Of a DNA stretch of 64,000 nt, positions 31,525-31,692 are shown in pieces. The stretch's first letter is position 1; every line of letters begins with the position of its first letter. A model generated the notes under the pieces. The model saw only the letters and a list, made by a program, of their open reading frames with translations. It did not search any database and was not told where the DNA came from. The position numbers and the translations under genes are program-made. Origin of the DNA: Escherichia coli (lineage in GTDB: Bacteria > Pseudomonadota > Gammaproteobacteria > Enterobacterales > Enterobacteriaceae); assembly GCF_003334305.1 (NCBI RefSeq), contig NZ_QOWS01000018.1. One strand, given 5' to 3'.

Positions 31525-31692
31525 ATGAAGAGACAAAAACGAGATCGCCTGGAACGGGCACATCAACGTGGTTATCAGGCCGGCATCGCCGGACGCTCAA
31601 AAGAAATGTGTCCCTATCAGACGCTGAATCAAAGGTCACAATGGCTGGGAGGCTGGCGAGAAGCCATGGCGGACAGGGTAGTAATGGCCTGA
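31525..31692 (+). CDS. rmf: Ribosome modulation factor
   Basis: 55-aa ORF MKRQKRDRLERAHQRGYQAGIAGRSKEMCPYQTLNQRSQWLGGWREAMADRVVMA read directly; absent from the track only because it is under 60 aa. Confidence 0.95.
   Translation: MKRQKRDRLERAHQRGYQAGIAGRSKEMCPYQTLNQRSQWLGGWREAMADRVVMA

Follow-up and report, generated by a model that had tools for sequence, protein, structure and literature searches.

Does the short interval between pqiC and fabA in this window (the whole 64,000-nt stretch of Escherichia coli DNA that was analysed) encode the ribosome modulation factor, or the longer protein that an automatic list of open reading frames places across it? The rmf gene, its protein, the role of that protein in ribosome hibernation and the position of the gene between pqiC and fabA all belong to textbook knowledge of E. 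coli. An ORF track with a 60-aa cut-off omits the 55-aa frame and lists in its place an out-of-frame ORF of 65 aa, as the original prediction had pointed out; with a cut-off of 20 aa both ORFs were seen, each at exactly the coordinates given in Table 1. The same prediction proposed that the shorter frame is rmf, that its product is highly basic, that a bidirectional terminator shared with fabA follows it, that the 65-aa ORF is in the wrong frame, and that other genes of fewer than 60 codons in the window need manual reading.

We are practically certain of the overall reading, in which the gene is rmf, its transcript is ended at a hairpin common to fabA, and the 65-aa ORF is a chance frame. In this analysis the reading is based on protein identity, on purifying selection that acts on the rmf frame only, on the structure and covariation of the hairpin, and on published RNA 3' ends that we re-mapped; the conditions of expression, the binding to the ribosome and the position of the promoter are taken from the literature.

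Table 1 Coordinates of the features at and around rmf (window positions).
Feature	Position	Strand	Description
pqiC	30706..31269	+	187 aa; upstream neighbour, last gene of pqiABC; NCBIfam NF033620, 286 bits; RefSeq
Hairpin plus T-run after pqiC	31290..31327	+	-17.7 to -18.4 kcal/mol, z -3.7; inner part flagged by terminator scan
rmf 5' UTR	31467..31524	+	start 58 nt upstream of the initiation codon (PMC6134199), placed by arithmetic
Spurious 65-aa ORF	31509..31706	+	out of frame with rmf; judged not a gene; unannotated in RefSeq
Candidate Shine-Dalgarno GAGGG	31511..31515	+	9 nt before the rmf ATG
rmf coding sequence	31525..31692	+	ATG start, 55 codons plus TGA stop (31690..31692); product ribosome modulation factor
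Bidirectional terminator hairpin	31710..31734	both	GAAACCTCCGC-ATT-GCGGAGGTTTC; A-run 31704..31708, T-run 31738..31741
fabA	31762..32280	-	172 aa; convergent with rmf; NF003509, 325 bits; TIGR01749, 324.7 bits; RefSeq

Identity of the protein and its locus

The translation of the 55-codon frame, taken from the ORF listing with the 20-aa cut-off, is MKRQKRDRLERAHQRGYQAGIAGRSKEMCPYQTLNQRSQWLGGWREAMADRVVMA. It carries 12 Lys and Arg residues against 5 Asp and Glu and has a calculated pI of 10.9; it is thus of the length (about 55 aa) and the strongly basic character looked for in RMF, and the description of the product as highly basic was accurate. All 55 of its 55 residues are identical to the RMF chains of PDB entries 6H4N (chain v), 6H58, 9IOT and 4V8G (chain AV), with E = 2.7e-34, a match far beyond chance. 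By this identity it is the same protein whose binding to the 30S subunit of hibernating ribosomes these structures show. The RMF chain of 2JRM, which we take to come from Vibrio, was matched with E = 4.1e-19. The Pfam profile PF04957 (RMF) was matched with E = 1.9e-22 and 79.5 bits over model positions 1-52 of 53, and the NCBIfam equivalog NF011162 with 92.1 bits against a cut-off of 40, so that both profiles place the protein in the family above their curated thresholds. RefSeq calls rmf, with protein accession WP_000828648.1, at the same coordinates in the aligned genomes. The structures, the profiles and the RefSeq call bear out the claim that 31525-31692 encodes Rmf. The result named in advance as the one to count against this claim, a 55-aa translation that matches no Rmf protein, was checked for, and the claim survives with full-length identity.

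RMF belongs at fold level to a wider Rmf/CrpP family (NCBIfam NF041886, NF041887 and NF033696), on whose subfamily model NF041886 the window protein scores 51.1 bits (cut-off 28). Its scores on the phage-type Rmf-like model (24.1 against a cut-off of 40) and on the CrpP model (19.8 against 55) both fall below threshold. The window protein is the chromosomal hibernation factor and not a phage-type or CrpP paralogue of mobile elements. Because the protein is identical to the solved structures, and because gene order, with the same pqiC/fabA position, and terminator sequence are as in MG1655, the locus is the known E. coli rmf gene itself, which goes beyond mere membership of the family, and nothing about it is new.

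The 501-bp locus (31270..31770) found a match in 5426 of 5426 complete E. coli genomes, covering at least 80% of its length in 5425, with identities of 95-100%. In every genome inspected rmf was annotated at the locus under the same accession. Its neighbours are pqiB and pqiC (+) on one side and fabA (-) and ycbZ on the other, and the order pqiC-rmf-fabA is kept in E. coli and Klebsiella. The orthologues of Klebsiella, Yersinia, Proteus and Aeromonas belong to the same family, with 55-58 aa and 67-91% identity, and differ in their C-terminal tails. A further difference is found in Yersinia pseudotuberculosis (L009, 1130..1965), where the gene convergent with rmf is annotated as fabF, not fabA. 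No annotation of hpf, the gene for the partner factor, was found in the genomes aligned to the window (over 127..47494 and 40000..64000).

Several observations concern the wider context and the records used for comparison. Colinearity of the window with E. coli O157:H7 extends over 127..47494 only, at about 98.5% identity, and the break at ~47494 adjoins a tRNA-Ser gene (47435..47522, -) after yccA. At this point O157 has a prophage that opens with an integrase gene, and the window instead continues with hyaABCDEF-appCB-cbdX-appA. The interval 40000..64000 is 100% identical to strain A7; because the window passes directly into the hya-app genes and matches A7, its strain lacks that O157 prophage and is neither a K-12 nor an O157 strain. 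The O157:H7 record was dropped as a source of annotation for the whole window because of its limited colinearity; the small genes of its prophage are absent from the window. In PLSDB, the rmf locus was also found in "plasmid" records of 4-5 Mb from E. coli, K. pneumoniae, P. mirabilis and A. caviae (among H51-H53, H62 and H64-H66), where it lies in a chromosomal context. These are evidently chromosomes mislabelled as plasmids, and smaller PLSDB records with the locus (260 kb to 1.3 Mb) may be assembly fragments. Counts of plasmid-borne copies of chromosomal genes drawn from PLSDB should accordingly be used with care.

The overlapping 65-codon frame

Could the 65-aa ORF be the real gene, or a second gene that overlaps rmf? 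It is longer than rmf and begins with an ATG, and its translation, with a pI of 11.7, is as basic as RMF, so charge cannot discriminate the two frames. It matched no NCBIfam family. Its start codon, an ATG at 31509..31511, shares bases with the purine-rich block tGAGGGAAACGAGGC ahead of the rmf ATG, and direct reading of the sequence upstream of 31509 found no Shine-Dalgarno motif there. The start codon of the longer frame is thus part of the conserved ribosome-binding block of rmf. Within this block GAGGG is the likely Shine-Dalgarno sequence of rmf, judging from its position and sequence. A 16-nt stretch, GAGGGAAACGAGGCAT (around 31510..31526; around 885..903 in loci L007-L009), which ends in the A and T of the rmf start codon, shows no difference between E. 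coli, two species of Klebsiella and Yersinia pseudotuberculosis, and the remaining spacer diverges. Among the orthologues the block is kept as far as Yersinia, and the conservation of this translation-initiation region is unusually strong.

Among four divergent E. coli strains a single substitution was found inside the ORF; it is synonymous in the rmf frame and an R-to-S change in the 65-aa frame. As the variation within E. coli is too low for a test of the frames, we took rmf loci from other genera, namely those of K. pneumoniae, K. aerogenes, Y. pseudotuberculosis, P. mirabilis and A. caviae, drawn from chromosome-sized or chromosome-derived records filed as plasmids in PLSDB. All five of these loci have an intact rmf frame of 55-58 aa. 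In favour of a gene in the 65-aa frame, both E. coli and K. pneumoniae keep it open, and it is free of stops across the rmf region in Yersinia and Aeromonas; against this, it is interrupted by one stop in K. aerogenes and by two in P. mirabilis, and its ATG is missing in Yersinia, where it is GTG, and in Proteus and Aeromonas.

Substitutions relative to E. coli were counted at codon positions 1/2/3 over the first 50 codons of rmf. The counts were 3/3/13 for K. pneumoniae, 2/1/14 for K. aerogenes, 12/5/25 for Y. pseudotuberculosis, 14/9/27 for P. mirabilis and 10/11/26 for A. caviae; the excess at third positions is a property of the rmf frame only, across the other genera. In the same order of loci, amino acid identity in the rmf frame is 47, 47, 39, 35 and 35 of 50. 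The 65-aa frame reaches 32, 36, 22, 20 and 19 of 49, no better than the third, stop-filled frame with 34, 35, 21, 19 and 18 of 49. The third-position excess, together with this equality of the two other frames, indicates that selection acts on the rmf frame only, and this frame is under purifying selection and conserved among Gammaproteobacteria. From these comparisons the 65-aa ORF is a chance open frame, a by-product of rmf. A genuine gene in that frame, whether in place of rmf or beside it, is so improbable that we regard this alternative as effectively refuted already by the sequence comparisons. The contention that the track had picked the wrong frame thus holds, on the lack of a family, the broken frame in relatives and the selection on rmf alone.

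Termination downstream of rmf and an RNA end within the gene

The stop codons of rmf (31690..31692) and of the convergent fabA (31762..31764, -) are separated by a gap of 69 nt, which contains a hairpin with a perfect stem of 11 bp, including 7 G-C pairs, and a loop of 3 nt. The terminator scan flagged this hairpin on both strands (5 sites in the region as a whole against 1.4 expected). On either strand it folds with -19 to -20 kcal/mol, with z = -4.3 (+) and -5.1 (-), and 0 of 200 shuffled sequences folded as well. Neither the scan nor the folding found another terminator-like structure in the 69-nt gap. The structure is that of a terminator, a G+C-rich hairpin preceded by an A-run and followed by a T-run; the U-run of the + strand is short and is offset from the stem by GCC. 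The stem is kept through compensatory changes in K. pneumoniae (AAGCCTCCGC/GCGGGGGCTT) and K. aerogenes (AAGCCTTCGC/GCGAAGGCTT). A strong hairpin follows rmf in Yersinia and Aeromonas as well, and one is present after the gene in most of the orthologues; that of Y. pseudotuberculosis (AACCTCCGC/GCGGAGGTT), still 3' of rmf, has nearly the E. coli stem.

Published Term-seq data allowed RNA ends to be placed on this structure. In MG1655, the curated 3' ends of Adams et al. 2021 (PMC7815308, Supplementary file 1) lie at 1015926/1015927 (+) and 1015897 (-); that study assigns the former to rmf as its primary 3' end and labels the latter antisense to rmf. All the context sequences printed there have exact matches in the window, with the same offset of 984190 for each of them, which puts the ends at 31736/31737 (+) and 31707 (-), 2-3 nt beyond the stem on each side. 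The re-mapped MG1655 data thus show 3' ends in vivo on both strands just past the hairpin. Since the - strand end follows the fabA stop codon at a distance of 55 nt, we infer from its position that it belongs to fabA.

The possibility that the hairpin ends transcripts of rmf or of fabA but not of both, or does no more than stabilise RNA 3' ends, has to be weighed against these data. The tail on the + strand is weak, with GCC ahead of UUUU, and this short, offset U-run implies that rmf termination may be less efficient than fabA termination. The read counts are also unequal (PMC7815308), about 91,600 on the - strand and about 1,200 and 9,600 on the + strand, although this gap fits a fabA gene that is well expressed and an rmf gene that is poorly expressed in growing cells. 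Ends located 2-3 nt from the stem may have been trimmed back to the hairpin by exonucleases, in which case they would not mark the exact site of release. On the other hand, the curated peaks are dominant on both strands and symmetrical around the same hairpin, A- and T-runs are present on both sides, the stem is preserved by compensatory changes in Klebsiella, and the gap offers no alternative structure. We therefore consider a one-sided or merely stabilising hairpin very unlikely. Structure, Klebsiella covariation and Term-seq ends support the assignment of 31710..31734 as a bidirectional terminator common to rmf and fabA, which is what had been predicted. A literature search on such a bidirectional rmf/fabA terminator returned papers on the faba bean only.

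The same dataset, which covers three growth conditions in MG1655, contains a curated "internal" 3' end at 1015759 with about 1,100 reads (PMC7815308). It corresponds to window position 31569 (+), 45 nt into the rmf ORF, and no obvious hairpin is seen at that position. Regulated premature termination or processing here would yield a 5' RNA of ~100 nt, made up of the 5' UTR and the first 15 codons, that has a role of its own or tunes the output of RMF; we think this very unlikely, and the end may equally be a degradation intermediate or a pause site. Less likely still than such a short 5' RNA is translation of the 65-aa frame confined to E. coli and K. pneumoniae.

The region upstream of rmf and expression of the gene

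The 256-bp spacer between pqiC and rmf is reported to serve as promoter region of rmf and to hold only one RpoD promoter, at -58 from the initiation codon (PMC6134199). A scan of 31200..32400 with the sigma-70 consensus gave no promoter match, and the start site was therefore taken from the literature. The absence of a match is what is expected for a weak promoter that relies on activators, ppGpp, cAMP-CRP and other factors. TTAACT at 31454..31459 is a possible -10 hexamer, judging from its location. A search of the spacer for CRP sites (TGTGA-N6-TCACA, at most 3 mismatches) turned up a single weak candidate, 31346..31361 with 2 mismatches, which carries no weight alone. An inverted repeat at 31460..31482, flagged as terminator-like, was rejected as a structure since the surrounding 91 nt fold with z = -1.25; that the reported start at ~31467 falls within its first arm further undermines it. 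The hairpin plus T-run that follows pqiC probably shields rmf from read-through from pqiABC. In an Rfam scan of 31200..31800 (E <= 1) all matches were below threshold (the best with 24.6 bits against a gathering cut-off of 55) and lay on the terminator hairpins; no known RNA family, the Pseudomonas-type rmf motif included, was found in this interval.

The spacer is interrupted in E. coli strain 350 (L005, 1234..2447), where an IS3-family element, IS1203, is inserted with its breakpoint at a site equivalent to window position ~31403, some 64 nt ahead of the start reported for rmf. By its location, this insertion would part the core promoter from upstream regulator-binding sites.

Such an insertion means that disruption of the regulatory region occurs in nature, and one may ask if rmf in the window strain is intact yet silent or defective, for example through damage to its promoter. 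Strain 350 says nothing specific about the window strain. The window has no insertion here. Over the 501 bp many genomes match it at 100% identity, and identity is 99.8% with K-12 strains, whose rmf expression has been the subject of study. Compared with K-12 the coding sequence shows no difference, and the sole difference across the 501 bp is one base in the spacer, position 31328, which lies some 140 nt ahead of the reported start. The chance that the gene is silent or defective in this strain seems to us negligible.

RMF has been described as a basic protein of 55 aa that is absent in exponential growth and induced by ppGpp and cAMP-CRP, with an rmf mRNA half-life of about 24 min (PMC8778775). 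In E. coli K-12, rmf expression depends on ppGpp and cAMP-CRP in stationary phase, and RMF forms 100S dimers with HPF (PMC8778775, PMC6134199). On this basis, transcription of rmf in the window would depend on only one sigma-70 promoter, located in the pqiC-rmf spacer ~58 nt ahead of the ATG, and as growth slows ppGpp and cAMP-CRP would switch this transcription on. RMF would attach to the 30S subunit close to the anti-Shine-Dalgarno end of the 16S rRNA and block initiation, and together with HPF it would convert 70S ribosomes into inactive 100S dimers, the ribosome hibernation of stationary phase. Transcription would stop at the symmetrical G+C-rich hairpin 31710..31734, which would also end the convergent fabA transcript.

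Another small gene is lost in the same way as rmf. The 30-aa cbdX (appX; MWYLLWFVGILLMCSLSTLVLVWLDPRLKS), which lies directly after appB at 56255..56347 (+) and encodes a subunit of the cytochrome bd-II oxidase, is also below the 60-aa cut-off and is therefore absent from such an ORF track, which gives at least one further example besides rmf; the advice to read genes of fewer than 60 codons in this window by hand was right. As rmf, its hibernation role and its placement between pqiC and fabA are already established, and standard annotation pipelines call the gene, the value of the finding is methodological only. A 60-aa filter conceals rmf, a universally conserved gene, and displays instead a longer, meaningless ORF in another frame, and scans that use such an ORF track should add a pass for small proteins.
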